Shown in pieces: positions 12,332 to 53,114 of a DNA stretch of 64,000 nt (position 1 is its first letter; the number at the start of each line of letters is the position of its first letter). The notes under the pieces are model-generated. The model did no database searches. It was not told the origin of the DNA and was given only the letters and a program-made list of their open reading frames with translations. Origin of the DNA: an uncultured Bacillales bacterium (GTDB lineage: Bacteria > Bacillota_I > Bacilli_A > RF39 > UBA660); the NCBI GenBank assembly GCA_946412015.1, contig CAMKGA010000004.1:3858-67857 (forward strand), read 5' to 3'. Position numbers and translations under genes: made by a program.

Positions 12332-12342
12332 GAGGTGATAAA

Positions 12343-16460: not shown

Positions 16461-16537
16461 CGGGAAATGGCTCAACTTGGTAGAGCACTTGGTTTGGGAC
16501 CAAGGGGTTGCAGGTTCAAATCCTGTTTTCCCGACCA
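16461..16537 (+). tRNA. tRNA-Pro (anticodon TGG)
   Basis: Acceptor cgggaaa/tttcccg, anticodon loop tttggga, CCA end. Its 3' end is the attachment site of the adjacent island. Confidence 0.85.
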
Positions 16538-16572
16538 TTAAGTTTATAAATCCTTGTATTGCAAGGATTTTA
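16521..16572 (+). repeat. attL: 3' end of tRNA-Pro plus downstream hairpin, direct repeat of 22863..22915
   Basis: tcctgttttcccgaccattaagtttataaatccttgtattgcaaggatttt recurs with about 5 mismatches at 22863..22915. It includes the terminator-like hairpin aatccttg-tatt-gcaaggatt. Confidence 0.65.
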
Positions 16573-16612
16573 TAATAATTTGATATTCATAACCCTTATA
16601 AAACACTTAAAA

Positions 16613-17701
16613 TTATTTGTTTTGTTTCATTTGATTCAAGATGTTGACCGCTTTATCTTCATCTTTAGGAATCATATGAGAATAGGTATTGAGTGTCATA
16701 TTGATATCTGAATGTCCTAAACGTTCGGAAATAACTGTTATAGGGACATTCATTGATAAAAGTAAGGATGCATGACTATGTCTGAAGTCGTGTATTCTTA
16801 TTTTTTTGACCTTAGCTATATCACAATACTTATTCTTCTTTCTACCAATTGTTGATGGTGCTAATGGATTTAATCCACCAAATATAAACCAATTATCATT
16901 GAAATCTACACATTGTTGATAATATTTCTTTAAAAGATTAAGTTTATTAATTAATTCATTATCTAGTTTTACTTTTCTGATACTTTGACTAGTTTTAGGT
17001 GTATTAATAATATGTTTGTTATCAACCATTTCTTTAGAGATAGTTTTATTTATGTCTAAATATCCATCTTTAAAATCATTCCAGTTAAGAGCTAGTGCTT
17101 CACCTTGCCTTAATCCAGTATAGTATAGTGTTTCAAATAAGAATTTATATACTAAATCATCAACACATTTAATAAACTTTTGATATTCTTCTATTGTCCA
17201 AAAATCAACATTTTTAACTAACTCTGTTTTTCTTTTGAAATTACCAGTTAGTGTGGCTACATTTGTTTTTAGTCCATAAAACCTAATAGCATAATTTAAG
17301 ATATTAACCATTGCTCCATGCAAACTAGAATTGTATTTATGTTTAAAACCTTTTTTCTCAATTTCAATTTGCCATTTTAAATAAACACTATTAGTTATTT
17401 TATTAAGTTTATAGTTTTCAAAATATGGTAGTATATGATTTTTAAATCTACTCTCAACTGATCTATATGATTGAGTCTTTAATCTTAATTCTTTATAATT
17501 AGCATATTCTTTCCATAAATCATTAAAAGTCATATTAGAGAAATTAAACTTATCTCCCATTTTAAAATCATATTCAGCTTGTTGAGCTTCCTTTTTGGTA
17601 TTAAATCCTTTTCTCTCAAACTGTTTTCTATTTCCATATACATCATCACAATAGGTTCTAAACTTCCATTTCTTTGTTCTCTTATCTTGATATACCGGCA
17701 T
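16613..17701 (-). CDS. int: tyrosine-type site-specific integrase
   Basis: 362 aa; C-terminal catalytic region ...HDFRHSHASLLL...LGHSDINMTLNTYSHM carries the R-H-R-Y box residues; immediately adjacent to the tRNA. Confidence 0.9.
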   Translation of the reverse strand: MPVYQDKRTKKWKFRTYCDDVYGNRKQFERKGFNTKKEAQQAEYDFKMGDKFNFSNMTFNDLWKEYANYKELRLKTQSYRSVESRFKNHILPYFENYKLNKITNSVYLKWQIEIEKKGFKHKYNSSLHGAMVNILNYAIRFYGLKTNVATLTGNFKRKTELVKNVDFWTIEEYQKFIKCVDDLVYKFLFETLYYTGLRQGEALALNWNDFKDGYLDINKTISKEMVDNKHIINTPKTSQSIRKVKLDNELINKLNLLKKYYQQCVDFNDNWFIFGGLNPLAPSTIGRKKNKYCDIAKVKKIRIHDFRHSHASLLLSMNVPITVISERLGHSDINMTLNTYSHMIPKDEDKAVNILNQMKQNK

Positions 17702-17969
17702 ATTTTAAAGTCCTATTATTTAATTTAACTTCTGTATCTGCCATGCTAATAATATAATCTAAATCAAGACCAAGATATTCAATTACTTTTTTAGTAGGTA
17801 CAAGTATTGTTTTACCACTAGGAAGTTGTTTACCATTTTTAACAATTTCATCGGCTATTACTTTTCTGATTTTAATCGCACTGTTTCTTCCGCAATTAGC
17901 AATTAAAGCAATTTCTTTAATACTTGCCCATGGTTTTGATATAATTTTATATAATTCTAAATTGGACAT
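17682..17969 (-). CDS. small excisionase/DNA-binding (Xis-like) protein
   Basis: ~95 aa ORF upstream of and overlapping int, with a strong RBS aaaggaggtgaagat; helix-turn-helix-like segment. Confidence 0.4.
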   Translation of the reverse strand: MSNLELYKIISKPWASIKEIALIANCGRNSAIKIRKVIADEIVKNGKQLPSGKTILVPTKKVIEYLGLDLDYIISMADTEVKLNNRTLKYAGISR

Positions 17970-18108
17970 ATCTTCACCTCCTTTCTTTTGGAAACTTGTT
18001 TCCAAATACACTATACCACTTTAAAAATATTTTGTCAACTAGTTTCCAAAAAATGTTTGGTTTTTTGATAAGATGTGCTATAATGTAGGTGTTGAGGGAT
18101 GTGAATCA

Positions 18109-18609
18109 ATGAAAAAAAAAGAACAAGAATTAGGGGAATTAGTAAAAAAAGCTAGAGAAGAAAAAGGATTATCAGCACGTAAATTAGCTGAGTTATGTAA
18201 TGTGAGTCATACCGAAATTAATAATATTGAAAAAGGTTTAAGAGTAAAACCTGCTGTACTAACACTTAAAGGTTTTGAAAAATATCTTGATTTACCTTTT
18301 GATAAAATAGCTAAGATGGTTGGGTATTCAGATGTAACTATTGACTTTACAGAAAAGAATATAATTGTATCTTATGAAATGTATGATAAATATGTTCAAC
18401 TCAGAAAAAGTGAAGAAGATAATATGTTACATACAATTGATATTAAAAGACATATGGCAATGGATATAAAAAAATCTTTTAATGAAATATATAATTATTT
18501 AAAAAAACAGCCTGATGTTGATAAAACATTATTGAAAAATGCCGATGAAATTATTGATATGCTAAATATAATTGAATTAAAATATGAACCTATTATTAAA
18601 GAAAAATAA
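18109..18609 (+). CDS. XRE-family HTH transcriptional regulator (island repressor candidate)
   Basis: N-terminal ELVKKAREEKGLSARKLAELCNVSHTEINNIEKG is a classic XRE/Cro-C1 HTH; divergent from int/xis. Confidence 0.75.
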   Translation: MKKKEQELGELVKKAREEKGLSARKLAELCNVSHTEINNIEKGLRVKPAVLTLKGFEKYLDLPFDKIAKMVGYSDVTIDFTEKNIIVSYEMYDKYVQLRKSEEDNMLHTIDIKRHMAMDIKKSFNEIYNYLKKQPDVDKTLLKNADEIIDMLNIIELKYEPIIKEK

Positions 18610-18993
18610 TCGTTATAATAATTAAATGATTATTTTTTTTGTGGGCACTTTTCCCTAAATTATTCAAAAATTACATAAAAAAGCACTGTATTTTTTTAAT
18701 GAGCATAAGATGTTCGCCACCCATTTTCGAGTTCCCACTTATAAATCAAAGGAAAAACTGGGTGGCATTTCTATTTTTGCATTTGCAAAAATGCCGACAT
18801 TTTTAAGGAAAAGTGTCCACTCATTATCAAAAACACCATATATATCAACGAATTTAATGCCTACTAATTTAGTGACAAGTACCGGCAATAGTTAAAATGG
18901 TGTTAAAAAAGTGCTTCCTATAATTTTTTTGAATTGATATAAATATGTTGACAATGATAGTTATTTTTTTATATAATAAATTACCAAGAAAGA

Positions 18994-20883
18994 ATGATTT
19001 GGATGAAAAAATTATTAGAATTAAATGAATTATTAAAGAATTATTTAGATATTGACTTTATATACTGTAATAATGAAATTGCAAAAAAAATAAACAATAG
19101 GATAAAAAAACAATTTACTGTAAGCATGAATTTAGAAGATTTAACAAATAAAGTTTATAAACAAAAAGTAAATTTTGAACCTATTAAAAAAAATACTAGT
19201 GATAGTACGCAAGCTGTATCTGCAAATATTAAAGAATTATTTAAAGAAAAAATTTCCAATCCTGATTTAGTATTGTCTTTAGAAAATTTGGGGTATTCAT
19301 ATGAAACAATAAGTTATTATATTGAGACAGAAGAAGAAAAAATGGAATTAGGAATATATAATGAACCTGTCATCAAATTATCTAATATGATAAGCAAAGC
19401 TCATTTTTTAACTCTTTTAGAGAATATGACAAAAAAAGAAATTGATTTTTCAAAATTAGAATATTTAACTTGGGAAGAAGTTGCACCAGCTTTAAATAGA
19501 GAGGGATATGCTAGCACTTGTAAATGTCATAATCCAAATATTTTTAAGAATATTCAATCAATAGATGGAACAATTTTATGTAAGTATTTAGATTTTACTA
19601 ACTATCAGGGCTATAAATCTGACGATTTTTTTCCAAAAAATATTTATGTTACGATTAATCCTTTAGAATACTTTTATGAAAAATTAAGTCTTTCGGAGAA
19701 ATTAATTTTATTTAATGAATCTTGTACAAATGATATTAAACAATCTATCCCTGAACTAATTGATGAAAATCAAATAATAGAACAGATACTATTAATAATA
19801 AAAGATGAAATTGTAAAAAAAGTGTCTAAATATATAGATTTGATAGACAATAAATATATTAAAGGTAGTGAAAATGGAGTCACTAAATTTGATTTAGATA
19901 TTAATAAATCTCTTGATTTTCATTATATTAATCACTTATCTGAAATATATAAATTAGATGTACCTGAATTCACAATAGAAAGTTTGAAGATATTTAAAAA
20001 TAATATATTGGAGATTGAAAATAATAATTTAAAACATTTTATCAAAAAGCGAGAATTAATTGAAACTGAAAAATTTAAAATTGAAATAAAAAACAAAAAA
20101 AATCAGCTTTGTTTTAAAAAAAATAAATCAGCATTTTTAGAAAAAATAATAGAATTTGAAAGATTATTTGAAAATGGAGAAATTTGTGATCCTGATTGGT
20201 ATTTGGAAGATACAACATATAGATCAATAGAAGTTGAGCACTTAACAACATATATAGATAACATAATATATTGTCTAAAAGCTTTTCTTAATGATGATAC
20301 AGAAACGCTGAAAGAAAATCAATTTAATCTTGAATTTGTTAGTGATAATCTAGATTATATTGAAAGAATGTGTAACGAATATATGAGTTATGACCCCCAA
20401 AAGTTTTATGTTGGGAACATTGACAATTTTTATGAATATGGCAAATGGGATAAGTTGCCTTATCAAGAAATAAAATTAATTATTAAATATATTAAAAGCG
20501 AAATGCCTTTTCTTAATGATTATAAAAATGGTCTGTATTCTAATGATACAACTAAAACTCTAGATGAACAAGAAGATAATTGTAATACAAATATTTACAA
20601 TATTGAACGAAAGATCAATTATGACATAGAACAAAATATAAGATTTATTTGTGATGAAATAGAAAAGAATTCTAATATTTATGATGCTTTAACAAATATA
20701 ATTGGTTTACTAGATACTATTAATAAGCCTAATATATTTAATGAAACTATAATTGAACAATTATATGAATTATTGAAAGTGTATGGAATGTTAAGTAATA
20801 GAAAAATTTCTGTTGAATGCGGTATTAATAAGGGACAAAAAGAATCAATACAAAAAGTCTTGATGATAAAAGATAATAAATAA
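18994..20883 (+). CDS. hypothetical 629-aa island cargo protein, no recognisable domain
   Basis: Long ORF with its own TTGACA-N18-TATAAT promoter (18949..18978), located just upstream of Abi_2 inside the island. Confidence 0.3.
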   Translation: MIWMKKLLELNELLKNYLDIDFIYCNNEIAKKINNRIKKQFTVSMNLEDLTNKVYKQKVNFEPIKKNTSDSTQAVSANIKELFKEKISNPDLVLSLENLGYSYETISYYIETEEEKMELGIYNEPVIKLSNMISKAHFLTLLENMTKKEIDFSKLEYLTWEEVAPALNREGYASTCKCHNPNIFKNIQSIDGTILCKYLDFTNYQGYKSDDFFPKNIYVTINPLEYFYEKLSLSEKLILFNESCTNDIKQSIPELIDENQIIEQILLIIKDEIVKKVSKYIDLIDNKYIKGSENGVTKFDLDINKSLDFHYINHLSEIYKLDVPEFTIESLKIFKNNILEIENNNLKHFIKKRELIETEKFKIEIKNKKNQLCFKKNKSAFLEKIIEFERLFENGEICDPDWYLEDTTYRSIEVEHLTTYIDNIIYCLKAFLNDDTETLKENQFNLEFVSDNLDYIERMCNEYMSYDPQKFYVGNIDNFYEYGKWDKLPYQEIKLIIKYIKSEMPFLNDYKNGLYSNDTTKTLDEQEDNCNTNIYNIERKINYDIEQNIRFICDEIEKNSNIYDALTNIIGLLDTINKPNIFNETIIEQLYELLKVYGMLSNRKISVECGINKGQKESIQKVLMIKDNK

Positions 20884-20946
20884 AATCTATAATTTATGGA
20901 GACTAGATTTATTGTATCATTTCTTAAAAATTTTTTGAAAAATGAT

Positions 20947-20974
20947 TTGACATTTGGTCAAAATAGTGTATAAT
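20947..20974 (+). promoter_or_regulatory. sigma-A-like promoter of Abi_2 gene
   Basis: TTGACA at 20947-52, 16-nt spacer, TATAAT at 20969-74. Confidence 0.45.
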
Positions 20975-20981
20975 TATATTT

Positions 20982-21020
20982 AATTGGTACTCAGGAAACT
21001 TTCGAAGCCCTGAGTCAATT
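20982..21020 (+). repeat. 39-bp element with internal 6-7 bp hairpin, upstream copy flanking Abi_2
   Basis: aattggtactcaggaaactttcgaagccctgagtcaatt; near-identical copy at 21936..21974. Confidence 0.6.
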
Positions 21021-21040
21021 TTATATATGGGGGCATAAAA

Positions 21041-21907
21041 ATGAAGGAATATAAAAGCAATGAAGAATTATTAGAATATTTAATATCTAAAGGTGTTAGT
21101 GTTAAAAATAAGAAAGTAGCTTTAGATAAAATAGAAAGATATACGTATTATTGTATTGTAAACACTTATAAAGAAGTATTTAAAGAAGATAATAAGTATA
21201 TTGATGATGTTACATTTGAAGAAATATATGCCCTATATGATTTTGATAAGAGTTTAAAGAATATATTTTTAAAATATATATTGGAAATAGAACAAGTTGT
21301 TAAAGCTCTTATAGCTAATACTGTATCAGAGAAATATGGCATTAAAGATTATTTAACATATAATTGTTTCAATCAAAAAATAAATCAAGATGTTATAGAT
21401 GAAATGATATTAAAAATAGATGATGAAATAAGTAAAAACTATGGTAAACATGCTGCAATAACACATTATAAAGATACATATGGTTTTATCCCGCCTTTTG
21501 TATTAGTTAAAATAATGACAATAGGACAGATAAGTAGATATTATGGAATATTAAAACAAGAAGATAGACAAAAGGTTAGTAAATATTTTAAAATATCTGA
21601 TAAATTACTAAAACAAATACTTCTAAATATTACTTTAGTTCGTAATTTCTGTGCTCACAATAATAGATTATATACATTTCATAGTAAATTCTTTATTAGT
21701 TTTAAATCAATAGATACATCATATAATAGTGCTAATAAAACAACTAATCTTTATATGATTATGAAATGTATGGAATTGTTATTAGATAAAAAAAGGAAGA
21801 AACAATTTATAAATCAAATTAATAAAGAAATAAATAAATTAGATAAAAAGTTAAATGTTATAGATATAAGAATTATTTTAAAGATTATGGGTTTCCCATG
21901 TGAATAA
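21041..21907 (+). CDS. Abi_2 family abortive-infection protein (AbiD/AbiF-like)
   Basis: 288 aa; the N-terminal region matches the Abi_2 family pattern (...EELLEYLISKGVSV...YCIVNTYKEVF...); second paralog at 36545..37468. Confidence 0.7.
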   Translation: MKEYKSNEELLEYLISKGVSVKNKKVALDKIERYTYYCIVNTYKEVFKEDNKYIDDVTFEEIYALYDFDKSLKNIFLKYILEIEQVVKALIANTVSEKYGIKDYLTYNCFNQKINQDVIDEMILKIDDEISKNYGKHAAITHYKDTYGFIPPFVLVKIMTIGQISRYYGILKQEDRQKVSKYFKISDKLLKQILLNITLVRNFCAHNNRLYTFHSKFFISFKSIDTSYNSANKTTNLYMIMKCMELLLDKKRKKQFINQINKEINKLDKKLNVIDIRIILKIMGFPCE

Positions 21908-21935
21908 TTATTTATAATTTGAATATAATAATAGT

Positions 21936-21974
21936 AATTGGTATTTAGGAAACTTTTGAAGCCCTAAGTCAATT
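21936..21974 (+). repeat. 39-bp element, downstream copy flanking Abi_2
   Basis: aattggtatttaggaaacttttgaagccctaagtcaatt; 35/39 identical to 20982..21020 with a compensatory pair change in the stem (ctcagg/cctgag to tttagg/cctaag). Confidence 0.6.
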
Positions 21975-22057
21975 ATTCCTTAATTTTCTAATATGAAAAT
22001 TAAGGTTTTTTTAGAATTTAAAAAGAAGAAACGAATTCTTCTTATAATAAGCATATG

Positions 22058-22723
22058 CTAATATTCTAAATCAATATCTTGATTAATTAATTCTAAATTA
22101 TTGTAAATAGAATGTTTAAAATAACTATATTGATTTTCGATTACCTTACCATATTCATCCAATTTATTATTTAATTTATAATGTCTAATAATATAATTAA
22201 TTACTGTTATTATTTGTGTATAATTATATTCTTTTAATAACTCAGTAAATATATTATCATAATTTGTTAAATTAATATCAGTATCTTTTATAAAGCCTTT
22301 TCTAACTAATTCTAATGTTAAACTATGGTGAATAGTTTTATCTATTTTATCTTTGTTATTATTGCTTTGTATATTAGTATTTAGTAGTGATTTGTTATCG
22401 GTACACCCTTTATCCGTGAACCCTTTAGGGTATTGTGGTGTTTCATAAATATCATATTGATAATTGATTCTACCTTTTTCATCATGTGTTTTTTCTCTTA
22501 TTAAATAACAATTATCTTCTAATTCTTTTAATGTTGATTGTATAGCTTTCTTTCCTTCTTTGCACATTCCAACTAATCCATTAACAGAATATATCCAATC
22601 ATCAGGTAAACTTAACATCATTGATAGTAATCCTTTAGTCTTTAATGATAATTTTTTATCTCTTAAATGATAGTTAGACATCACTGTATAGTTCTTTGTT
22701 TTATTAATTCTAAATACTGCCAT
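22058..22723 (-). CDS. replication-initiator-like HTH protein (RepA_N / DnaD-like N-terminal domain)
   Basis: N-terminus MSNYHLRDKKLSLKTKGLLSMMLSLPDDW...LKELEDNCYL resembles Firmicute plasmid/PICI replication-initiator N-terminal domains. Confidence 0.4.
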   Translation of the reverse strand: MAVFRINKTKNYTVMSNYHLRDKKLSLKTKGLLSMMLSLPDDWIYSVNGLVGMCKEGKKAIQSTLKELEDNCYLIREKTHDEKGRINYQYDIYETPQYPKGFTDKGCTDNKSLLNTNIQSNNNKDKIDKTIHHSLTLELVRKGFIKDTDINLTNYDNIFTELLKEYNYTQIITVINYIIRHYKLNNKLDEYGKVIENQYSYFKHSIYNNLELINQDIDLEY

Positions 22724-22862
22724 AAATTACTCCTCTCCAGCCCTTATCTAGCCCCTTAAAAATTCTTTCTTTAAGCGTTTTAAGCAGAAATGAGTAGTAA
22801 TGAAACGTAAAAAACCTACTATTTTCTGTAGGTTATGTAATATCAAATTATTTTATATTTTC

Positions 22863-22915
22863 TCCTGTTTTCCCGACCATTTAGTTTATAAACCTTGTAT
22901 AACAAGGTTTTTTCT
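22863..22915 (+). repeat. attR: direct repeat of tRNA-Pro 3' end
   Basis: tcctgttttcccgaccatttagtttataaaccttgtataacaaggtttttt, copy of 16521..16572. Confidence 0.65.
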
Positions 22916-22981: not shown

Positions 22982-23005
22982 GTTATTTTTTGTAATATAA
23001 AGGTA
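22982..23005 (+). promoter_or_regulatory. conserved 24-bp motif gtaatataaaggtagttactgata (copy 1), ~125 bp upstream of the pilin gene
   Basis: Second copy at 24405..24428 (22/24 identical). Both follow a hairpin and T-run, and each precedes a + strand gene by ~100-125 bp. Confidence 0.4.
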
Positions 23006-23128
23006 GTTACTGATACTAGAATTATAATAAATAATGTGATAAAATTATTTTGTAAAATAAAACAGTACAGTTTTGTTTTATAATTTCTCTTTTATTCAAA
23101 TTTTTATTTTGAAAGGATGGTAGATTTT

Positions 23129-24175
23129 ATGAATAAGAATAAAAGAAAAGGATTCACATTAATAGAACTAATAGCAGTTCTAGTAATACTAGCAATTCTT
23201 GCATTAATAGTAACACCACTAGTTATGAATATTATAAGAAAAGCTAGAATTTCAGCGGATAAAAGAAGTATTGATGCATACGGAAGAAGTGTTGAGTATG
23301 CAATAGCTACATATTTACTAGATAACGGAAAGTTCCCAACAAGTATAGAAGAGCTAACGATAGAATATACAGGAGATGAAGTAGTATGTTCAACATCTAA
23401 GCTTAATTCTGATTCTTCAGTATATCTAGCTGGATGTACTGTAGCAGGAAGAAGTGTAGATTATACATATGGTAGTGAAGAGTCTATCGTATATGATGTA
23501 TATCAAAAAGGAGATACAGTAACATATAATGGAATGAATTTCCACGTAATAAAAGATAGTGGAACAAGTCAAGATTATGTTACATTATTATTAGATACTC
23601 CGTTGACTGCAACTGAGGTTAATACATATGGAGGAGTAGGAACAGCAAATAACCATGTAAATATGCATGTAACTTCTAATACAAATGCATCATATTACCA
23701 AAAAGCATATGATTATAATAGTGCAGGCTATTTAGCATTCTACTCAAGTGAAACTTGTGGATATGATAGTAATAACAATTGGGTAACTACTGGATGTAAT
23801 AATAATTATGCAGATAGTGATATAAAATATGTAGTAGATGCTTGGGCGTTAGATAAAACAACCTCAAGTGATTTAAAAGAAATAGATGGATATAAAGCAA
23901 GAATGATAACATATGATGAATTAACAGATGAGCTAGGATATGAAAAAGCATCAAGTGGAACAATAATGCCATCAAGTAATGGTGATACACCAAACTGGGT
24001 ATGGAATTCAGGAAATAACGCTGGATATTGGACAATGAGTGGGGTAGCAGATAGCACTGACCGTGCCTGGTATGTTATTGGTGATGGCGGGCTTAACAAC
24101 AACAACGTGCGCTACGGCAACTACAGCTACGGGTCTGTTCGCCCAGTTATAAATCTCTTGAAATCTGCCATCTAG
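23129..24175 (+). CDS. type IV pilin/pseudopilin-like protein with large C-terminal domain
   Basis: N-terminal prepilin signal KRKGFTLIELIAVLVILAILALIV (G/FTLIE methylation motif). The C-terminal ~90 aa share a motif block with two modules of the 1906-aa protein (…YW…G…VRPVI…). Confidence 0.65.
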   Translation: MNKNKRKGFTLIELIAVLVILAILALIVTPLVMNIIRKARISADKRSIDAYGRSVEYAIATYLLDNGKFPTSIEELTIEYTGDEVVCSTSKLNSDSSVYLAGCTVAGRSVDYTYGSEESIVYDVYQKGDTVTYNGMNFHVIKDSGTSQDYVTLLLDTPLTATEVNTYGGVGTANNHVNMHVTSNTNASYYQKAYDYNSAGYLAFYSSETCGYDSNNNWVTTGCNNNYADSDIKYVVDAWALDKTTSSDLKEIDGYKARMITYDELTDELGYEKASSGTIMPSSNGDTPNWVWNSGNNAGYWTMSGVADSTDRAWYVIGDGGLNNNNVRYGNYSYGSVRPVINLLKSAI

Positions 24176-24362
24176 GTTATCAAGAAGGTCTCGTGCTAGG
24201 AATAAACTAGATTTAAACAAGTACAATATTTAGAACAATATGAAATGCAATAATTTGGAAACAAATTATTGTAAAAGGCAGCTTGTCTGCCGTAGCTTCA
24301 CGTCTGCGTAGCGAAAGTGAAGCTTATAAATATATATTTTAATGGATAAAGAGAAATTATGA

Positions 24363-24396
24363 AACCCAGTAATATTTAAATTACTGGGTTTTGTTT
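24363..24396 (+). terminator. rho-independent terminator after pilin gene
   Basis: Hairpin aacccagtaat-atttaa-attactgggtt followed by ttgtttt. Confidence 0.55.
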
Positions 24397-25349: not shown

Positions 25350-26639
25350 ATGTTAGAATCACATTTTGAAACTACAGAAAATATGAAAAAGTATGTACCA
25401 TTAATACCGGTTAACAAGAATTCTAAAATTAATAATTCAGGTGTTTATATGTGCTATGATGATGAGAATATTTATATTGATAAAAAGTTTAACAATAATT
25501 TAATTATTGGAGAGGGTGGAAGTGGTAAGACACAAGCAGTAACTTTGCCATTATTAAAAACATCACTTTTAGCAACCGAATCTGTAATTGTAACTGATTT
25601 AGGTGGTGATATATATAAAAATATGCATGACGAGTTTGAGAAGAATGGTTATACTAATTTAGTTTTAAACTTTGATAATCCACGTAATGGGGATAGGTGG
25701 AACCCATTTTCTTTAATTACTAAATTATATAAAAATAAAGATTATGATCTAGCGCAAGAAGCAATTGAAAATTTAGGATTTTCTTTAATTAGAGAAAGAA
25801 CAGATAATACTAATGATCCGTTTTGGGAAAATTCTGCTGTAAACTTTTTTTCGGGACTTGTATTATATGCGCTTGAAAATAATATTGATTTAACTTTTGA
25901 TGCGTTACAAGATATAGAAAATAAGATTGATGAAAATAGTAGTGAATTTATTAATTCTTTAGATAAAAAAGATCCGTCATATATAAATTTAGTTGGAATA
26001 TTAAATGCACCAAATGAAACAAGAGGAAGTATTATTTCTGTATTTAATCAGAAAATTAAATCGTTTTTTAGTAAAATAGATTTAAAAAATATGTTATCAG
26101 ATGCCAATTTTGATTATGATAAATTATTAAATAGCAAAACTATTGTTTATTTAATACCAGGAGTAACTACAGTATCTGAAAGATTAATATCACTTTTTGT
26201 AAGTCAATTTGCGTATGTAAAAAGGATTTTTAAAAGCACACTTAAATACAATATTATATTAGATGATTTTTATAATATGAATTATATAAAAAATATTGTA
26301 AATATTATTAATAATTCAAAATCTTTTGGAATGAAGTTTACTATTACAGTAGGTGGTTTTAATGAGATTAATAATATATATGGTAAGGAACAAGCAAATT
26401 TATTAAAGGCATGTTTTAATAATATTATATATTTATTATCATCTGATATTGAAACACTTGAAGAAGTTAGTAAGATGTGTGGTAGTAAAAGTAGCGATGG
26501 TAAAATGTTGCCGCTAGTATCGGTATCTGAGTTAAAAACATTAAAAATGTTTGAAGCAATTATTTTAGCTCAAAGAGTTATGCCTTATAAAACTAAGTTA
26601 TGTCCATATTATAAATTAACTGAAAATGGTATATTTTAA
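25350..26639 (+). CDS. type IV secretion coupling protein (TraG/VirD4/TcpA-like) ATPase domain, N-terminally truncated relative to canonical T4CPs
   Basis: Walker A IIGEGGSGKTQ, the NP..GDRWNPF block, and Walker B/ATPase C-region NIILDDFYNM...GMKFTITVGGFNEINNIYG all match the T4CP soluble domain. No N-terminal TM segments, 429 aa. Confidence 0.55.
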   Translation: MLESHFETTENMKKYVPLIPVNKNSKINNSGVYMCYDDENIYIDKKFNNNLIIGEGGSGKTQAVTLPLLKTSLLATESVIVTDLGGDIYKNMHDEFEKNGYTNLVLNFDNPRNGDRWNPFSLITKLYKNKDYDLAQEAIENLGFSLIRERTDNTNDPFWENSAVNFFSGLVLYALENNIDLTFDALQDIENKIDENSSEFINSLDKKDPSYINLVGILNAPNETRGSIISVFNQKIKSFFSKIDLKNMLSDANFDYDKLLNSKTIVYLIPGVTTVSERLISLFVSQFAYVKRIFKSTLKYNIILDDFYNMNYIKNIVNIINNSKSFGMKFTITVGGFNEINNIYGKEQANLLKACFNNIIYLLSSDIETLEEVSKMCGSKSSDGKMLPLVSVSELKTLKMFEAIILAQRVMPYKTKLCPYYKLTENGIF

Positions 26640-45194: not shown

Positions 45195-46412
45195 ATGTCT
45201 AAACAAGAAAAAAATAATGATAGTAATATAATAAATAGAGTAATTCAAGTGATATTAATAATTATAATTATTATTTTGTTATTACATAACTGTTCTTTAA
45301 TTAAGAAGAAAAATGGTAAGGGGAATACTATTGATATAAAATGTGATGATGGTAAGTGCAGTAAAGATGATAAAATGATAGATTGTTTGTACGATGATGA
45401 AAATAGTAAATGCTTAGTTCCTAATTTTGTAGGGAAAAGTAAAAAAGATGTTTTAAAATGGCTTAGTTTATTATCAAATAATATTGATGTTGAGTTTAAA
45501 CTAGTAGAAAATCCTAATTATAAAGATGTAGTTGTTTTAGAACAATCAATTGTAGGAAAAAGTGTTAAAGAACTAATTAAAGGTAGAAAAAAAAATGTAA
45601 TTACAATTGTAAATAATGGTTCACTTGTAGATTGTAATAAAGATAGTCAAAATGATAAATGTACATTACCAAATTTTATAGATAAGAAAATAAGCAATGT
45701 AGAAAAATGGCTTGATAGTATTGCAAATAATGTAAAAATAAAATATGTTTATGTTGATTCTGATAAAATGGCAGGAACAATTGTTAATCAATCTATAAAA
45801 GGTGGCGCACCTATTAAAGAACTCATAAATAGTGACGAGGTAATAATTATTTATATTTCTAAAGGAAGTAAAAATAATAAATCTAATAACAGTAATAATA
45901 GCAATCAAGGTAGTAGTAATATACCGGAATCTAATCCAAGTTCAGATTCTGAAACAGAACCAGAGTTAGAAGATGACTTTTATGTTAGTGATAATGATAA
46001 AGTAAAATGGCATGATGACGTGAATTTAAATGTTTTTGAAGATTCATTGAAGATATCTAAAGTTAACGGAAAAATTGCTCCTGAAAGTACTGGAACTTAT
46101 AAATTCACGGTTAATAATGGAACTAAATATAATTTAAAATATAAAATTTCCTTTAATGAAGAAAATGAATATAATATGAATATAAAATATAAACTAAAAA
46201 AAGGAAATACATATTTAGTAGATGAATATGTTTCATATAATCAATTAAGTATAAATAATATGACATTAAACAGTACTAAGTCTGAGACATATTATTTGGA
46301 ATGGAAATGGGTTGGAGATAACGATTTAAATGATACTGCTATTGGTAATAGTGCTAAAAATAGTGATATTAAATATAGTTTAAAAATAAATGTAGAGGCA
46401 GAGAGTATATAA
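45195..46412 (+). CDS. membrane-anchored protein with two PASTA-like domains and C-terminal domain of unknown function
   Basis: N-terminal TM; two ~65-aa units (LVPNFVGKSKKDVLKWL...VLEQSIVGKSVKEL...VNNG and LPNFIDKKISNVEKWL...VNQSIKGGAPIKEL...SKG) fit the PASTA pattern. Confidence 0.4.
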   Translation: MSKQEKNNDSNIINRVIQVILIIIIIILLLHNCSLIKKKNGKGNTIDIKCDDGKCSKDDKMIDCLYDDENSKCLVPNFVGKSKKDVLKWLSLLSNNIDVEFKLVENPNYKDVVVLEQSIVGKSVKELIKGRKKNVITIVNNGSLVDCNKDSQNDKCTLPNFIDKKISNVEKWLDSIANNVKIKYVYVDSDKMAGTIVNQSIKGGAPIKELINSDEVIIIYISKGSKNNKSNNSNNSNQGSSNIPESNPSSDSETEPELEDDFYVSDNDKVKWHDDVNLNVFEDSLKISKVNGKIAPESTGTYKFTVNNGTKYNLKYKISFNEENEYNMNIKYKLKKGNTYLVDEYVSYNQLSINNMTLNSTKSETYYLEWKWVGDNDLNDTAIGNSAKNSDIKYSLKINVEAESI

Positions 46413-46861
46413 TGAATAAAGTATTTAAAATAATATTTGATGTTATATTTATTATTTCTATTATTATATTAGGACTATATTTTTTATTAAGATTATTAAA
46501 GATAGCTGAAATATATGAAGTTAAAACAGGCTCTATGGAAGATGATATTCATGTTGGTGATTATATATTAATTATAAAAAAAAGTGACTATAAAGTAAGA
46601 GATGTAGTTACATATGAAAAAGATGGATACTATGTTACTCATAGAATTATAAAGAAAAATAAAAATAAAGTTATTACTAAAGGTGATGCTAATAACGTTG
46701 CAGATGAAGAGATAAAAGTATCTAGTATAGTCGGAAAAGTAATATATCATGGAGGAATATTAAATTTCTTAATAAACTTTAAATATTTTATAGTTTGTGG
46801 ATTATTAGGATTATATTTATTAAGTACATTTTTTAATAAAAAGATAAAAGAACAGGAGTAA
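46412..46861 (+). CDS. sipW: signal peptidase I, SipW type (S26B, ER/archaeal-like)
   Basis: VKTGSMEDDIHVGDYILI...VTHRI...VITKGDANNVADEE...GKV matches SipW-type peptidases; N- and C-terminal TM. Confidence 0.75.
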   Translation: MNKVFKIIFDVIFIISIIILGLYFLLRLLKIAEIYEVKTGSMEDDIHVGDYILIIKKSDYKVRDVVTYEKDGYYVTHRIIKKNKNKVITKGDANNVADEEIKVSSIVGKVIYHGGILNFLINFKYFIVCGLLGLYLLSTFFNKKIKEQE

Positions 46862-46883
46862 AAAAAGTGAAAGGAGTATTGAT

Positions 46884-47393: not shown

Positions 47394-50300
47394 ATGAAAT
47401 TAAAGAAGCATAAAAAAATTTTGATTCTTTTTGCTTTTGTTGTTGCTTTCTATGCCATTGTTAGTGGGACTTTTTCTATTTATAGAGAAAAAAAAGGGGA
47501 TAAGATTGATTTAAGTATTTTGGATGCTTCTGGAATGGTTACAGTAAATTTTAAGGCTAATGGTGGAGTAATTGATTCTGAAGATGAGACAAAAACTGTT
47601 CAATCAGGTACGACTATTGGACAATTACCAGAAGCAACAAGAGATGATTATAATTTTGATGGATGGTATACTGAACCAACGGGTGGAGAAAAAATTGATG
47701 AGAATACTGTGGTAACGGGAACAACTGTTGATTATTATGCACATTGGATTAAAATAGTATGTAAAAAGGCCGTAACTGGTACATTACACAGTGAAACTTG
47801 TGCTCAAGGTGGAGCGTGTTCAGGATCTGGCGGTGGTTATCACGCTAATGATACTATCTATTATGGAACAATTCCAAGTTCTATTAGCCCTATTGTCGGA
47901 GATGCTTATGATTGTGATGTAAACGATGATGATACATGGGATCCTCAGACTGAAAGATTTTATTATGTTAGACATTATGGGACAACAGATGAATTTGAAA
48001 ATTCTGTATTGGTTCATTATACAAGTTTTGATGATTTAGGGCAAATGGATTCATCTCCTTCAAGAACCAATTATTTATACGGAGATGCTAGTGATTATTT
48101 ACCTACATCTGCAACTTGGGATAATCCAGCTCTTATTGAAATGAATGGTAATATTACTAGATTTATTGCACGAGAGGATTTAGCTGCAGCTTGTGGTTCT
48201 GAATCAGGAGGAAATAAATTTGAAAATTGCCGCTTCTATTTAGAAAATAGTAGGTATCAATCTAGTAGTTTAGGTAGAGCAGGTATATGGTTAGCTGCCG
48301 AAGGAAATACACATTATAGAATTCATACAGAACAACTATCTGTTTCAGTTGCTGATACAGATAGTAAAAATACAGTTAGACCAACTATTCAAATTCCGTC
48401 TAATAGAATAGAAGATTTTAACAAGAAGAAAAAATATACTATAAATCTTGATTCTCAGGATGGAATGCCAAGCGAGTATTCTTTTGAGAAATGGGAAGGT
48501 GAAAGATTAGACACACTTCCAATCCCAACAAAATTTGGTTATATTTTTTCTGGATGGTATACAGACAATGAAGATTATACAACTGAAATTACACAAAATA
48601 CTATTGTAACAGGTAATATTAATGGATATGCTAAATGGGTACCTAAACAAGTGCCATTAGATTATGTATTCTATATACCAGGAGAGTGTTCTTTTACATC
48701 AACAGGTATTGTAAATGGTGAAAATGGAGATTGTATTAGTACAATTAATCCAACAGGATCAAATATTGATTATACAGGAAGTTCTTTATCTTCAAAAAAA
48801 TACATAGATACTCAAGTAGGTTTATATAATTCAATAAATCACGATAAAGATTTTGAAGTGGGATTTACTATCGTAAGTTATAATTCAGCTGATAATATAA
48901 ATAGAGCAACATTAGTTCATTCAAAAGCAGAAATAGTAAATAGATATCCAGGATTTACGTTTAGAAAAAAAGATGCTACAAATAATTTTTTACTACAGTC
49001 TAGAGAAACACAAAGTAGTAATGCTGAGTATATAATTGCATCCTCATCTGTACAAAATGTAAAAATATATAGAATAAGTAATTCTATTTACTATAGTATA
49101 AATGATGGTGAAAAAACTAAATTAAATGATTTAAATCAATACAATCCAGTTTTTGATTTAACAACTTGGTTTGGTGGTGCTCCAAAAGATGAATCAGCAC
49201 TTGTTGCGGATAGATTATTTATAGGTACATTAAGTAATATGTATATCAAACTATCTCCAACAGCAAAAGTAACATTTGATCCTAATTATACTGGAGAACC
49301 ATCATTTGAACAAGATGCTAATGTTGGTAAAAAAATTGGTGATTTACCAACAATTACTAGACCGGGATATGCATTTATTGGTTGGTATACCGATCCAGTT
49401 AATGGTTCTAAGATTAACTCAAATACTATAATTGATGGAGATATTAGATTTTATGCTCATTGGACTGATGGTGCTACAGTAACACTTCATGCAAATGGTG
49501 GAAGTGTAAGTCCAAATACAATAACAGTTTATCATGGACATGAAGTAGGAAATCTTCCGACACCAGAGAGAACAGGATATACTTTTGATGGTTGGTATCA
49601 AGATGTGAATCTTACAATTCCTGCTACATCAGAAACAGTAATAAATCAAAATACAGATTTCTACGCAAAATGGATTGAAAATGTTACTATTACATTTGAT
49701 GCTGATGGTGGAGAAGTAAGTCCAACTAGTAAAACACAAGCTTCTGGACTTGCAATTGGAGATTTGCCAATACCATCAAAAATAGGTTATGACTTTGTAG
49801 GTTGGTATACCGATAATACATATACAACAGAAGTAACTTCTTCGACAGTGTTTAATACAACAACAACAATTATTGCAAAATGGGAAGAATTAGATGATAT
49901 AACTGTTAATTTTGATGCAGATGGAGGAAGTGTAAGTCCAACTAGTGTTACATTCCCACCTGGATCAGCAATAGGTGAATTACCAATTCCGGAAAAAACA
50001 GGATATAATTTTGTAGGTTGGTATACGGATAATACATATACAACAGAAGTAACATCTTCTACAACATTTAATACAACAACAACAATTATTGCAAGGTGGG
50101 TAGATGAGCAATATGTAGCTTGTGTAGGATTGAATTGTTATCTAACATTAGATGAAGCTATAGCTGCGGTACCAACTACTAAAGTAAAAACTAAAGTTAA
50201 AATCTTAAAAGATATTACGACTACAGATACTATAAATATAACAAGTAGCAAATGGGTTGAATTAGATATTGGAAATAATACTATTAGTGCTACTAGCGGA

Positions 50301-53114
50301 ACGTTCTCTTTGTTTACAAATACAGGTAAATTAGATATTATTAATGGTAAATTATATAGTTCAGGTGGATATATTATTGAAAATAAATCTACTGCAACTG
50401 TAAATATTTATGATGGAGAGCTAACTTATAATAAATCAAGTGATGGTGAGAAAAAAGTAATTGAAATTAAAGGTGGAACAGTTAATATTTACGGTGGAAC
50501 ACTTTCTTGTAACTCTAAAGCTGCAGTAATTAATGTTAATGCAGGAGCGTCATTAAATGTATATGGTGGAAAAATTAAGGGTACTAATACATTTAAAGGA
50601 CAAGCAGTTTATAACAATGGTGGAATAGTAACAATAAGTGGAACAGCTTATTTAGAGAATAACTCTCAGACTGGTACTGCAAATGGTAGAGCAGCTCTTC
50701 ATAATAATGCTGGAACAATTAATATACTTGGTGGAACAATTATAAGTAATAATAATTCAGCTGTAAAAAATAGTGATACAATGACAATTGGTACTAATGA
50801 TGATCCAATAGATAATACAAACCCAGTTATGCAAGGCTATAATTATGGTTTAGAAATAGCTAGTGGGAAAACAGTAACAGTTTACGATGGTATTTTCAAA
50901 GGTAATGTAAATACTAATAATAAAGCAATTAATGATGAATCAGGCGTAATTGTTAATAATGCAACAATTGTTCATACCAATGAAACAATAGATAATATTC
51001 AATATGATGTAGCTTATCTAGAAGATATTTCAGTTAATATTACAGTAAACTTTAATAAAAATGGTGGGGATACGGTTGAGTATAATTCAAAAACATTAAC
51101 TGAAATAGGTCCTATTGGAAACCTGCCTACTGCAACTAAAGCTAATTCAGAATTCTTAGGTTGGTTTACTGCAGGAGTTGGTGGAGAAAGAGTACTTTCA
51201 ACAACAGAAGTTGATGATGATGTTACTTATTTCGCACATTATACAAACACAAAAACAGTATGTAGACCAGCGACTGTTCTACATTCATCTGGATCAACAG
51301 AATTTGGACAAATTCCAAGTAGTCCATCATTAAGTGCTGGAGACGCTTTTGATTGTGATGTTAATGGTGACGGCACATATGATGCAACAAATGAAAGATT
51401 TTATTATTTAAATAAAACAAGTGATGGCAAAGCAGTATTAATATTCTATAATAATACATCACAAGTTAATAATAATGTATCTCCAGTTTGTAGTGCAACT
51501 GCTGTTAGTTATGCTCCTACATTTACAGAAGGTCCAAATACAGCTATTTCTGAGCTTCCTACGATAGCTCAGTGGCCAAATGTAAGTTTATATACAGAGC
51601 CAAGAACTATCACAGATGAGTCTGGAAATACTGTTTTAAGTAATTATGTATATAGTGGTTCAGCTGCAAGATTTGCAACTCTTGATGAGATTAAAGCAGC
51701 AACTAATTCTAATTTAAATGAAACTGCAAATGAGTTAGAAGATTACACATTCTTACTTGAAAATACAATTTCATATGGAAGCGATTGTAGATCAAATTAT
51801 TGGTTAGAAACAGTTAATTCAAATGGTGGAGCTGAAAGAATTAATGGTGCTGTTACTGCTAAGAGTCTTGGCCATGCTTCTGGTAATTCAGGAGTAAGAC
51901 CTGTAATCGAAGTCCCATTTGATTCAATTGAAGGAGCAATAAATATTGTTGAATTTGATACAATTCCAGAAGCAATGAGAACATATTTTAACAATGTTAA
52001 TTCATGGAATACTGGACAGGATGATACAAATTATAGTAGTTTTAATGATGCTATGACAGCAAATCTTAATAATTATGATTGTGCATATTATAAAAATGAT
52101 AATGTTACAACACAATATGGTAGTGTCTATTGTGATCAGCCAAATAAGTATAATACAGGTATTACAGGTAATATTAATGTATATGAATATAACGAGTTAA
52201 CAGGATTAAGATCAAATAATACAGTAAACTATGTATTTAATGATAATGGTAAGCTATATAATTTTATTCCTGGTAAAACATATTATTGGGAATCAGCTAG
52301 TGATAATACTAAAAAAGGTTTTGTAAGACCTACTGGTGAAAGACGACTTATTACTATTCCTGGTGTTAATAGACAGACGCGTAATGTAAGAGATTTAGGT
52401 GGCCTTCCTGTTGATACAAATGGTGATGGTGTTATTGATGGAAAACTTAAATATCAAAAGCTATATCGTGGTGAAAAAATTTGGGGATTAAATAATGATG
52501 GTACAACAAGAGCACAATTTGAAAAGTTAGGTATTTATAATGAATATGACCTTCGAACTCCAGGTTCAGATATTGTTATATCAGAAGAAGATAAATTGGC
52601 AAATTATAATCAAAACGAAATAGTTCATTATAAGATTGATCATACTGAATTTGGATCTCCTGCAACAGAAACACGTTTCAATGGTAAAAGTTATTATCAG
52701 TTATCTAGAGATGCTGCAATAGATGTAATGAAAAAAGTAGTAGCTGGTAATGATGATTATTCTATTTATTTACATTGTCGTATAGGAGCTGATAGAACAG
52801 GTACTCTTGCTTATTTATTAGAAGGTGTTTTAGGAGTGCCAACGGAATATAGATATCAAGATTATGAATTAACAACTTTCTTCGGATTAAGAGAAAGAAC
52901 AAGGTATTATTATATGAAAGATTCTACTAATGATATGTATAAATTCATATATTTAAAAAAAGCAATTCGTCATGCAACTTTAGGAAATGATGAGATTACT
53001 GGAGAAGAAAATGTAATTGATTGGTTCTTATTAGAAGGTAATTCCACAAGTGAATGTAGTGATATAACTGCACTAATAAATCAATTTAGAGCTAAGATGA
53101 TTGACTATAATTAA
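47394..53114 (+). CDS. giant (1906 aa) surface/secreted protein: SipW-type signal, Listeria-Bacteroides (Flg_new) repeats, parallel beta-helix, duplicated VRPVI modules, C-terminal CX5R tyrosine-phosphatase-like domain
   Basis: N-terminal FAFVVAFYAIVSGTFSIY signal. Seven G[YF].F.GW[YF]T..........W repeats, Gly-rich GG..IYGG beta-helix repeats, and a C-terminal HCRIGADRTG (CX5R P-loop). Two ~220-aa modules end in ..YW..G....VRP[VT]I..P. Confidence 0.7.
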   Translation: MKLKKHKKILILFAFVVAFYAIVSGTFSIYREKKGDKIDLSILDASGMVTVNFKANGGVIDSEDETKTVQSGTTIGQLPEATRDDYNFDGWYTEPTGGEKIDENTVVTGTTVDYYAHWIKIVCKKAVTGTLHSETCAQGGACSGSGGGYHANDTIYYGTIPSSISPIVGDAYDCDVNDDDTWDPQTERFYYVRHYGTTDEFENSVLVHYTSFDDLGQMDSSPSRTNYLYGDASDYLPTSATWDNPALIEMNGNITRFIAREDLAAACGSESGGNKFENCRFYLENSRYQSSSLGRAGIWLAAEGNTHYRIHTEQLSVSVADTDSKNTVRPTIQIPSNRIEDFNKKKKYTINLDSQDGMPSEYSFEKWEGERLDTLPIPTKFGYIFSGWYTDNEDYTTEITQNTIVTGNINGYAKWVPKQVPLDYVFYIPGECSFTSTGIVNGENGDCISTINPTGSNIDYTGSSLSSKKYIDTQVGLYNSINHDKDFEVGFTIVSYNSADNINRATLVHSKAEIVNRYPGFTFRKKDATNNFLLQSRETQSSNAEYIIASSSVQNVKIYRISNSIYYSINDGEKTKLNDLNQYNPVFDLTTWFGGAPKDESALVADRLFIGTLSNMYIKLSPTAKVTFDPNYTGEPSFEQDANVGKKIGDLPTITRPGYAFIGWYTDPVNGSKINSNTIIDGDIRFYAHWTDGATVTLHANGGSVSPNTITVYHGHEVGNLPTPERTGYTFDGWYQDVNLTIPATSETVINQNTDFYAKWIENVTITFDADGGEVSPTSKTQASGLAIGDLPIPSKIGYDFVGWYTDNTYTTEVTSSTVFNTTTTIIAKWEELDDITVNFDADGGSVSPTSVTFPPGSAIGELPIPEKTGYNFVGWYTDNTYTTEVTSSTTFNTTTTIIARWVDEQYVACVGLNCYLTLDEAIAAVPTTKVKTKVKILKDITTTDTINITSSKWVELDIGNNTISATSGTFSLFTNTGKLDIINGKLYSSGGYIIENKSTATVNIYDGELTYNKSSDGEKKVIEIKGGTVNIYGGTLSCNSKAAVINVNAGASLNVYGGKIKGTNTFKGQAVYNNGGIVTISGTAYLENNSQTGTANGRAALHNNAGTINILGGTIISNNNSAVKNSDTMTIGTNDDPIDNTNPVMQGYNYGLEIASGKTVTVYDGIFKGNVNTNNKAINDESGVIVNNATIVHTNETIDNIQYDVAYLEDISVNITVNFNKNGGDTVEYNSKTLTEIGPIGNLPTATKANSEFLGWFTAGVGGERVLSTTEVDDDVTYFAHYTNTKTVCRPATVLHSSGSTEFGQIPSSPSLSAGDAFDCDVNGDGTYDATNERFYYLNKTSDGKAVLIFYNNTSQVNNNVSPVCSATAVSYAPTFTEGPNTAISELPTIAQWPNVSLYTEPRTITDESGNTVLSNYVYSGSAARFATLDEIKAATNSNLNETANELEDYTFLLENTISYGSDCRSNYWLETVNSNGGAERINGAVTAKSLGHASGNSGVRPVIEVPFDSIEGAINIVEFDTIPEAMRTYFNNVNSWNTGQDDTNYSSFNDAMTANLNNYDCAYYKNDNVTTQYGSVYCDQPNKYNTGITGNINVYEYNELTGLRSNNTVNYVFNDNGKLYNFIPGKTYYWESASDNTKKGFVRPTGERRLITIPGVNRQTRNVRDLGGLPVDTNGDGVIDGKLKYQKLYRGEKIWGLNNDGTTRAQFEKLGIYNEYDLRTPGSDIVISEEDKLANYNQNEIVHYKIDHTEFGSPATETRFNGKSYYQLSRDAAIDVMKKVVAGNDDYSIYLHCRIGADRTGTLAYLLEGVLGVPTEYRYQDYELTTFFGLRERTRYYYMKDSTNDMYKFIYLKKAIRHATLGNDEITGEENVIDWFLLEGNSTSECSDITALINQFRAKMIDYN
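49684..50103 (+). repeat. tandem near-identical duplication of a 216-bp (72-codon) Flg_new repeat unit inside the giant gene
   Basis: 49800..49878 and 50016..50094 are ~92% identical at DNA level (ggttggtataccgataatacatatacaacagaagtaac...); the flanking parts of the units are also similar. Confidence 0.6.

Follow-up and report, generated by a model that had tools for sequence, protein, structure and literature searches.

The fold of C-type lectins (CLec fold) is an established scaffold for the targets of diversity-generating retroelements (DGRs), and a survey from 2018 recorded at most eight tandem or seven remote targets for one DGR (PMC5758913). Modular type IV pilins are exemplified by PilB and PilC of Streptococcus sanguinis, which carry a vWA module and a lectin module, respectively (PMC8179133, PMC9934059), and DGR-diversified tip adhesins have been described for the type V pili of Bacteroides (bioRxiv 10.1101/2024.11.15.621889). 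A search of one literature library returned no paper that pairs a DGR with a type IV pilin or prepilin, and two surveys mention pilin-type DGR targets in a single line each (PMC11661182, PMC6642488). The gene considered here lies at positions 23129-24175 of a 64,000-nucleotide stretch (the window) from an uncultured Bacillales bacterium (GenBank assembly GCA_946412015.1, contig CAMKGA010000004.1, positions 3,858 to 67,857 of the forward strand). Its product is proposed, with a probability of about 0.8, to be a modular type IV pilin-like protein with a DUF6273-type, lectin-like tip ending in a DGR-type variable region (VR), the DGR cassette having been lost at this locus. DGRs and modular pilins are each known, and the gene is regarded as a variation that joins a modular pilin to a DGR target.

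As in the DGR targets with a CLec fold, including Bordetella phage Mtd, Treponema denticola TvpA and the DUF1566- and FGE-sulfatase-type proteins, the VR closes a lectin-like scaffold at its C terminus, and VR and template repeat (TR) have a common 3' boundary resembling an initiation-of-mutagenic-homing (IMH) site; in relatives of the window gene, the TR is rich in AAC codons, the TR/VR differences are adenine-specific, and bAvd and a reverse transcriptase (RT) gene are adjacent. In contrast to the Mtd- and TvpA-type targets, the carrier is a type IV prepilin module rather than a phage tail fibre or lipoprotein, the scaffold is of the DUF6273 flavour, the cassette of the relatives includes a small MutS_I-like open reading frame (ORF), and the cassette of the window is deleted, which leaves the VR an orphan. 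The likeness to PilB and PilC of S. sanguinis consists in the fusion of an IPR012902/N_methyl pilin module to a module that is not pilus-specific, in a monoderm host, so that the pairing of N_methyl with a DUF6273-like module corresponds to a modular pilin as defined by Raynaud et al. 2021 (PMC8179133), and tip display and an adhesive role would be expected here as well. Unlike in S. sanguinis, the grafted module is DUF6273-like and made hypervariable by a retroelement, and the genes are dispersed and belong to no pil operon. With the type V pili of Bacteroides the locus has in common a gut bacterium as host, a DGR-diversified, presumably ligand-binding tip on a pilus subunit, and large multigene pilin families; pilus system, phylum and carrier fold are all unrelated. 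Type V pili assemble by strand exchange; the bacteria considered here are low-GC uncultured Bacilli/Erysipelotrichaceae, and their carrier is a type IV prepilin.

An ORF is present at 23117..24175 on the plus strand, and its mechanically assigned start at 23117 gives 352 aa. The gene is likely to start at 23129, encoding 348 aa with the stop at 24175, because an AAAGGA ribosome-binding site (23113-23118) lies 10 nt 5' of the ATG at 23129 and this second Met is the start in close homologues. Residue numbers refer throughout to the 352-aa ORF. The window protein itself has no record in the contig index. The features of the gene are as follows.

23129..24175, plus strand, modular type IV pilin-like gene (ribosome-binding site, starts of homologues, 2118 homologues mostly of ~340 aa)
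23129..23212, plus strand, class III (prepilin) signal peptide (matches to N_methyl, TIGR02532, GspG, ComGC and pilins in the PDB)
23159..23443, plus strand, pilin module: long α1 helix, aa 15-70, and small β-hairpin head, aa 89-109 (AlphaFold2, family alignment)
23492..23596, plus strand, small CBM5/12-like β-hairpin motif YxxGDxVTYNGxxFxV (below the Pfam threshold)
23882..24172, plus strand, C-terminal core, DUF6273-type lectin-like domain, aa 256-352 (hhalign, DUF6273/Lcl_C matches of homologues, Foldseek)
24063..24146, plus strand, DGR-type VR, ~codons 318-343, W YVIGDGGL NNNN V RYGNYSY GS VRP (GC content, NNC run, variation among orthologues)
24359..24394, plus strand, terminator-like hairpin 3' of the gene

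The prepilin leader pointed out in the original prediction was corroborated by profile searches. The basic leader MNKNKRKG, followed by FTLIELIAVLVIL, ends in Gly, and cleavage is predicted before F13, which places Phe at +1 and E17 as the Glu at +5 (MNKNKRKG/FTLIE), as in class III signal peptides; the longer stretch after the cleavage site, FTLIELIAVLVILAILALIV, leads into the hydrophobic N-terminal part of α1. Pfam N_methyl (PF07963) matches aa 7-32 (E=4.2e-9), TIGR02532 matches the same end of the protein (E=4.8e-8), and GspG and ComGC give N-terminal matches too. Against solved pilins, the family profile matches only the α1 helices (MshA, geopilin, GspG and S. sanguinis PilE1). In the AlphaFold2 model of the window protein (mean predicted local distance difference test score, pLDDT, 88.7), one extended helix spans aa 15-70, in keeping with type IV pilins, in which ~20 hydrophobic residues run into an α1 helix of ~50 residues, and separate C-terminal domains follow the head, the hairpin of which contains Cys91 and Cys107, invariant across the family alignment. 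The CBM5/12-like hairpin between the head and the C-terminal domain reaches E=0.012 for CBM_5_12 in the window protein and E<=0.01 in 18 of 52 members of the family, and chitin-binding modules are among its weak Foldseek matches.

The identity of the C-terminal domain is considered together with its kinship to a giant protein encoded in the same window, for which the relevant features are as follows.

47394..53114, plus strand, giant 1906-aa secreted protein
48153..48398, plus strand, C-terminal core of module 1, giant aa ~254-335, ITRFIAREDL...GIWL...VRPTIQIP (BLASTP to module 2, 1e-18; GC content at third codon positions, GC3, 0.07)
51651..51932, plus strand, C-terminal core of module 2, giant aa ~1420-1513, ARFATLDEI...YWLE...VRPVIEV (hhalign, AlphaFold2, Foldseek; GC3 0.12)

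It had been claimed that the last ~90 aa of the pilin-like protein align with the endings of both duplicated modules of the giant. In pairwise comparison the claim fails the shuffling test that the original prediction had itself named as a refutation: BLASTP gives no such alignment, and Smith-Waterman scores against 1000 shuffles are no better than chance (z=1.26 with module 2, z=0.13 with module 1). Between the two modules, by contrast, kinship is clear (BLASTP 1e-18; z=10.6). Since the raw pairwise tests gave no support, profiles were compared, with 2118 homologues for the pilin family and 584 for the module-2 family. Here the claim holds: hhalign aligns the two families with a probability of 99.1% and E=1.8e-18, pairing pilin aa 256-352 with module-2 aa 138-231 (giant aa ~1420-1513), so that the boundary drawn in the original prediction was also correct. 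In separate profile runs E was 9e-14 for the last 96 aa of the pilin taken by themselves and 0.039 for the 132 aa ahead of them, while control profiles, one reversed and eight column-shuffled, gave E>=0.03; the single window sequence was found by the module-family hidden Markov model (HMM) at E=2.9e-10. The order of secondary structure elements is equal in the pilin and module-2 models, β-α-(loop)-β-β-β-β. Module 1 is tied to the pilin domain mainly via module 2. Only the last ~95 aa of the pilin align with the giant modules, and the preceding ~130 aa are family-specific.

The YW...VRPVI block, for which a Pfam identity had been called for, belongs to DUF6273 (PF19789) by way of the family members: 15 of 52 pilin-family and 20 of 52 module-family members match this model at E<=0.01, the C-terminal motif of the homologues aligning to DUF6273 positions ~126-171, and a few pilin-family members also match Lcl_C/DUF1566 (PF07603). 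The homologues score 19-21 bits, and the gathering score of 23.5 bits is not reached by the window protein, which in this respect differs from Pfam DUF6273/Lcl_C members. Weak Foldseek matches of the pilin model include TvpA (2y3c), Mtd (1yu0) and EgtB, all of which are presumably proteins of the CLec fold. The AlphaFold2 model of module 2 (pLDDT 84.5; predicted TM-score, pTM, 0.87) finds a DUF6273 phage protein as its best viral match (E=5e-5), with a DUF1566 protein also among the matches, and its PDB matches are weak and mostly C-type lectin-like. The best solved structure for the pilin model is the Thomasclavelia ramosa IgA protease (9qa6, E=7e-4), whose N-terminal domain is DUF6273 (PMC12402451), so that the comparison of structure predictions converges on DUF6273 proteins from both sides. 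These data support one superfamily, DUF6273/PF19789, with Lcl_C/DUF1566 as a near relative, comprising the C-terminal block of the pilin and the ends of both giant modules. The DUF6273-type domain resembles the CLec fold, and for a lectin-like fold it is reasonable to suppose that the domain of the pilin may bind a ligand.

The suggestion that pilin and giant display a common ligand-binding or adhesive module is therefore retained as far as the superfamily and a plausible ligand-binding role are concerned. A common ligand is unlikely: the two have no more in common than the conserved scaffold (AR-x-x-T-x-x-EL ... YW ... VRPV), and whereas the surface with which the pilin presumably binds is hypervariable, the corresponding segments of the giant show ordinary codon usage. 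Nor is the pairing special to this window: the homologues of the module are mostly ~380-aa N_methyl proteins, and the pilin's own 228-aa domain is found in tandem arrays and behind ordinary signal peptides as well. DGR involvement in the ~380-aa module-like pilin family was considered and rejected, because its member P0130 is identical on 23 contigs, has housekeeping neighbours and gives no sign of diversification.

Because the literature on DUF6273 consists mainly of phage and DGR papers, DGRs were looked for. The feature of the locus now judged its main one, a VR-like block at the end of the pilin-like gene, had escaped the original prediction. The GC content of this block (nt 24068-24146 for codons 318-343) is 0.50-0.56 against 0.26 for the window, which ranks it second among stretches of 90 nt, behind the tRNA genes. 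Its 25-codon GC3 peaks at 0.72, whereas the other 58 ORFs do not exceed 0.44. NNC codons follow one another in the block (AAC AAC AAC AAC GTG CGC TAC GGC AAC TAC AGC TAC), which ends in the IMH-like sequence GGGTCTGTTCGCCCAG at 24131-24146; CGCCCAG occurs once in the 64 kb, inside the terminal GTTCGCCCAG, and the same GTTCGCCCAG terminates verified VRs and TRs. Neither module end of the giant has a VR signature (GC3 0.07-0.12), and their ordinary AT-rich codons mean that they are not VRs.

Hypervariability is confined to this block among near-identical copies. Four orthologous contigs are near-identical over 240 nt before and 35 nt after the VR, 12-23% of positions differ inside it, and the variable codons are essentially all NNC. 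When 11 full-length members of the 90%-identity cluster are compared pairwise, they agree at 95.2% outside aa 319-340 but at 47% within this segment, and each of the 11 has a VR of its own. Cluster entries P0391-P0394 and P0403 (~230 aa, membrane-like, unrelated) were excluded from this comparison; they are listed in the 90% cluster yet cannot be aligned to the pilin, which may be an artefact of clustering or gene calling. The pilin module (aa 1-75) shows the lowest entropy in a set of 118 paralogues, ~0.6 bits, and the block at aa 309-341 reaches 2.5 bits; the sole region above this value, the loop at aa 275-292 (2.8 bits), is invariant among near-identical orthologues. The length of the VR also varies by whole codons between orthologues (nt 24068-24130 of the window and loci L076-L079 and L083, 36-39 codons from WTMS to VRP). 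Such differences in codon number go beyond what adenine mutagenesis alone produces and imply a TR whose length varies between strains; slippage in the AAC runs is a guess at the cause.

In related loci, a motif scan placed DGR-type RTs (GxxxSQ ... YxDD) ~1 kb from family members in L011, L014 and L064. In L011, the pilin-like gene (9995-11008) is followed by a MutS_I-like ORF, bAvd (PF22296, E=3e-12), the RT gene (RVT_1, E=2e-17) and an 87-nt repeat of the 3' end of the gene, and 12 of the 14 mismatches of this TR/VR pair are at TR adenines. In L014 all mismatches are (18/18; binomial p ~1.5e-8). A scan of metagenomes for the TR flank yielded just two loci, both of the L011 type: L074 has the same cassette of target, bAvd-like ORF, RT and TR, and L075 only the TR end and the genes downstream of it. 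The ORF of ~140-150 aa that precedes bAvd (L011 11196-11648, L083 531-956, L074 975-1400) matches MutS domain I in L011 and L083 and seems an unusual DGR accessory gene.

A further comparison is with L083. The closest homologue of the window protein is P0001 (94% identical), and P0400 of the same 90%-identity cluster, an orthologue at least 90% identical, is encoded on L083 directly downstream of the MutS_I-like ORF, bAvd, RVT_1 and the TR. This TR reads GTGCCTGG TAT GTT ATT GGT AAT AAT GGC GGG CTT AACx4 GTG AACx5 GGG TCT GTT CGC CCAG. The VR of L083 itself differs from it by 14 mismatches, 12 at adenines and 2 at the 5' edge, and the window VR by six, all at TR adenines (p ~9e-4 given 25 A in 81 nt); for L076, L077 and L079, the mismatches at adenines and at other bases number 11/0, 13/1 and 9/0, respectively. 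The window VR and the L083 TR agree completely over the IMH-like GGGTCTGTTCGCCCAG and diverge immediately behind it. An RT and Avd thus lie beside the orthologue in L083 and the paralogues in L011, L014 and L074, and the window has in their place only a short junction.

22992..23030, no strand, site of the missing DGR cassette, 39 bp (blastn synteny and junction sequences against L083)

These 39 bp replace the 2.4-kb cassette of MutS_I-like ORF, bAvd, RT and TR (L083 447-2851), and the VR of the window is orphaned by its absence.

Based on these comparisons, a mechanism can be proposed. [quoted passage not shown] The CBM5/12-like hairpin and the DUF6273-type domain are grafted onto this carrier, and the last ~26 codons before the invariant VRPV probably constitute the VR of a DGR. 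In the manner known for DGRs, runs of AAC codons in the TR would be converted into NNC codons through error-prone reverse transcription at template adenines followed by retrohoming. The surface presumed to bind the ligand would thereby be altered and the scaffold (AR..T..EL, YW and VRPV) left as it is. The VR of the window would be frozen unless it is served in trans by a second DGR at some other place in the genome, and the two modules of the giant are non-diversified members of the DUF6273 superfamily.

Several observations weigh against this proposal. The window protein has no DUF6273 match of its own, even at E<=10 with the domain alone, and most of the structural matches to proteins of the C-type lectin fold are individually weak (E>0.1). 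The alignment of the window VR with the L083 TR contains 9 gap columns (one codon fewer, two more), so that the true TR of the window would be a length variant, of which none was found, and no RT motif, Avd or TR-like repeat occurs in the 64-kb window, which weakens the case for continuing diversification of the window copy. The predicted pilin head is very small, a single hairpin ahead of the grafted domains. Machinery genes are absent from the window as well: a Pfam scan of the 40 ORFs of at least 150 aa between 9.4 and 63.3 kb (seven ORFs at 627-9427 excluded) found no T2SSE, T2SSF or Peptidase_A24 gene, and motif searches over all of the 64 kb likewise gave no signature of a T2SSE-type ATPase, a prepilin peptidase or T2SSF, which upholds within this scope the earlier statement that no pilB, pilC or pilD genes lie nearby. 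No PilB/ComGA assembly ATPase was found in ~1 Mb of related DNA either, where the motif scan gave only ABC transporters.

This last result is also what an alternative would lead one to expect, in which the protein is a DGR-diversified surface or secreted lectin whose prepilin N-terminus acts only as an export or anchor signal, processed by the peptidase or retained as a signal anchor, and is never polymerised. Most paralogues have no adjacent pilus genes, L073 and L080 for instance being solitary among housekeeping genes; the same domain occurs behind ordinary signal peptides and in tandem arrays; and the number of copies per genome in five metagenome-assembled genomes (MAGs), 6-22, is large for the subunits of one filament. 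However, the pilin module is the best-conserved part of the protein, including the Glu at +5 and the whole ~56-residue helix, and such conservation would be expected of an assembly interface rather than of a mere anchor. In addition, modular pilins with grafted adhesive modules are documented (PMC8179133), and a T2SSF platform gene adjoins a prepilin peptidase gene (A24_N_bact, E=4e-31, and Peptidase_A24) in related MAGs, the T2SSF gene of one such pair beginning ~0.6 kb from a pilin-family member in L004. A lectin that is anchored but not polymerised is therefore considered improbable, although it is the most serious competitor of the pilin reading. The T2SSF and prepilin peptidase pair (L004 1633-3775; L037 14611-16771) is conserved 3' of a YqfQ-like gene, and neither of these two pairs has an adjacent assembly ATPase.

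The hypervariable block might instead have arisen because paralogues exchanged sequence by recombination or gene conversion, in the manner of cassette-type antigenic variation. The many paralogues per genome, often at contig ends, the truncated fragments of the C-terminal domain downstream of a full gene in L068, and the whole-codon length differences among orthologous VRs, which classical DGR mutagenesis does not produce, could be accommodated in this way. Exchange between diverged paralogues would not, however, yield variable codons that are almost all NNC with an invariant third base, as expected of an AAC template, nor the adenine-specific TR/VR pairs beside RT and bAvd in L011, L014 and L083, with TRs of the same type in L074 and L075; the flanks, moreover, are identical up to the edges of the VR. 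Gene conversion in place of a DGR is thus very unlikely. Least credible of all is that the resemblance between pilin and giant is a chance match of short motifs (YW, VRPV): the failure of BLASTP and Smith-Waterman would suit it, but not the profile-profile score set against its shuffled and reversed controls, the recovery of the single pilin sequence by the module-family HMM, the Pfam model matched by both families, the DUF6273 proteins found by both structure models, or the equal order of secondary structure elements. The modular pilin-like protein with a DGR-type VR is hence preferred.

The distribution of this pilin-like family was surveyed in one genome per GTDB species. The scan gave 72 loci in only seven MAGs (21, 18, 16, 8, 6, 2 and 1), labelled uncultured Bacilli, Bacillales or Erysipelotrichaceae, with human gut and rumen as their sources. 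The family has 6-22 copies in five of these seven MAGs and 16-22 in three of them, many at contig ends, unlike the maxima of eight tandem and seven remote targets in the 2018 survey (PMC5758913); the paralogues are mostly solitary among housekeeping genes. In CAKPFG01, a human-gut Bacilli MAG (loci L001-L062), 19 of 22 paralogues have a VR-like GC3-rich end (e.g., L001 1088-1175 and L026 12198-12285), and nearly all of these ends follow one frame with NNC/NNT variable codons and identical fixed bases: TCT NNC GTG TGG NNT GTG NNC NNC NNT GGC NNC GTG NNC NNC NNC NNT GVG NNT NNC NNC NNA GGT TCC GTG CGC CC. This uniformity suggests that one TR may serve ~19 dispersed targets in CAKPFG01; a TR of this type was not found in the DNA examined. 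By extension, a lineage of uncultured, very low-GC Bacilli/Erysipelotrichaceae from gut and rumen may possess type IV pilin-like genes by the dozen, scattered over the genome, whose lectin-like tips are rewritten by one or a few DGRs, the window gene being a member that has lost a private cassette; this wider picture is put forward tentatively, at a little under even odds.

At the syntenic position (9995-12416) of L068, where MreB is 96% identical, there is a 473-aa pilin-like gene product with a duplicated head and a different C-terminal domain, apparently DUF6273-type, the Pfam scan of the protein matching only N_methyl. It is followed by two N-terminally truncated fragments, 11721-12032, which matches DUF6273, and 12075-12416, which could be decayed copies or silent cassettes.

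Apart from the replacement of the cassette by 39 bp, the window differs from the otherwise syntenic L083 by one further rearrangement, an insertion upstream of the pilin-like gene.

16521..22881, no strand, integrated element at the 3' end of tRNA-Pro with a 19-bp direct repeat, TCCTGTTTTCCCGACCATT, at 16521-16539 and 22863-22881 (synteny against L083)

This 6.3-kb element, absent from L083, carries a tyrosine integrase, a helix-turn-helix (HTH) protein, a 629-aa protein without a family match, Abi_2 and a Rep-like HTH_36 protein; the pilin-like gene lies outside it. The idea that the gene is cargo of an island bearing the integrase and a type IV coupling protein was rejected, because a pilin-like gene occupies this position, flanked by the tRNA cluster and the downstream genes, in L068, L032 and L083 too, and the integrase element is a separate insertion. 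The VirD4/TraG-type coupling protein (25350-26639) has only 429 aa, and its neighbours are a Dam methylase and an AraC regulator; further conjugation genes were not seen, and the trio of orf70, AraC and coupling protein is also present in L083. The window is rich in mobile and defence islands, with two Abi_2 genes (21041-21907 and 36545-37468), two large serine recombinases (42605-44284 and 60680-62299), and restriction/modification and GmrSD-like genes at 55358-59834.

Further downstream, the locus of the giant protein includes a signal peptidase gene.

46412..46861, plus strand, signal peptidase I of the SipW-like, archaeal type, shortly upstream of the gene for the giant (TIGR02228 at 72.1 bits, cut-off 51.85)

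With this score, the SipW-like peptidase on which the original prediction had relied is real. The giant itself comprises a hydrophobic N-terminal signal ending VSGTFSIY, seven Flg_new repeats, the two DUF6273-like modules and a C-terminal tyrosine phosphatase domain (Y_phosphatase3), an odd combination with the adhesin-like repeats. Compared by eye, its N-terminal signal presumably resembles SipW-dependent signals such as that of TasA. Two small proteins (190 and 158 aa) encoded around the peptidase at 44517-47360 have signals like that of the giant (…FGTYAIY, …VHTFALM and …VSGTFSIY).

If the protein is displayed on type IV filaments, this lineage would couple a hypermutation engine to pilus-tip lectins, in parallel to the type V pili of Bacteroides, and beside that parallel its pilin gene families would be unusually large. 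DUF6273 would gain a concrete role as a DGR scaffold, which would explain the recurrence of its motif in unrelated surface proteins such as the giant. The orphan VR of the window and its cassette-bearing orthologue in L083 would furthermore allow a frozen target to be set against an active one in nature. Should the wider picture of one or a few DGRs serving dozens of dispersed genes also hold, these gut and rumen bacteria would possess a repertoire of adhesins at pilus tips that can be programmed, and no larger multi-target DGR system may have been described.

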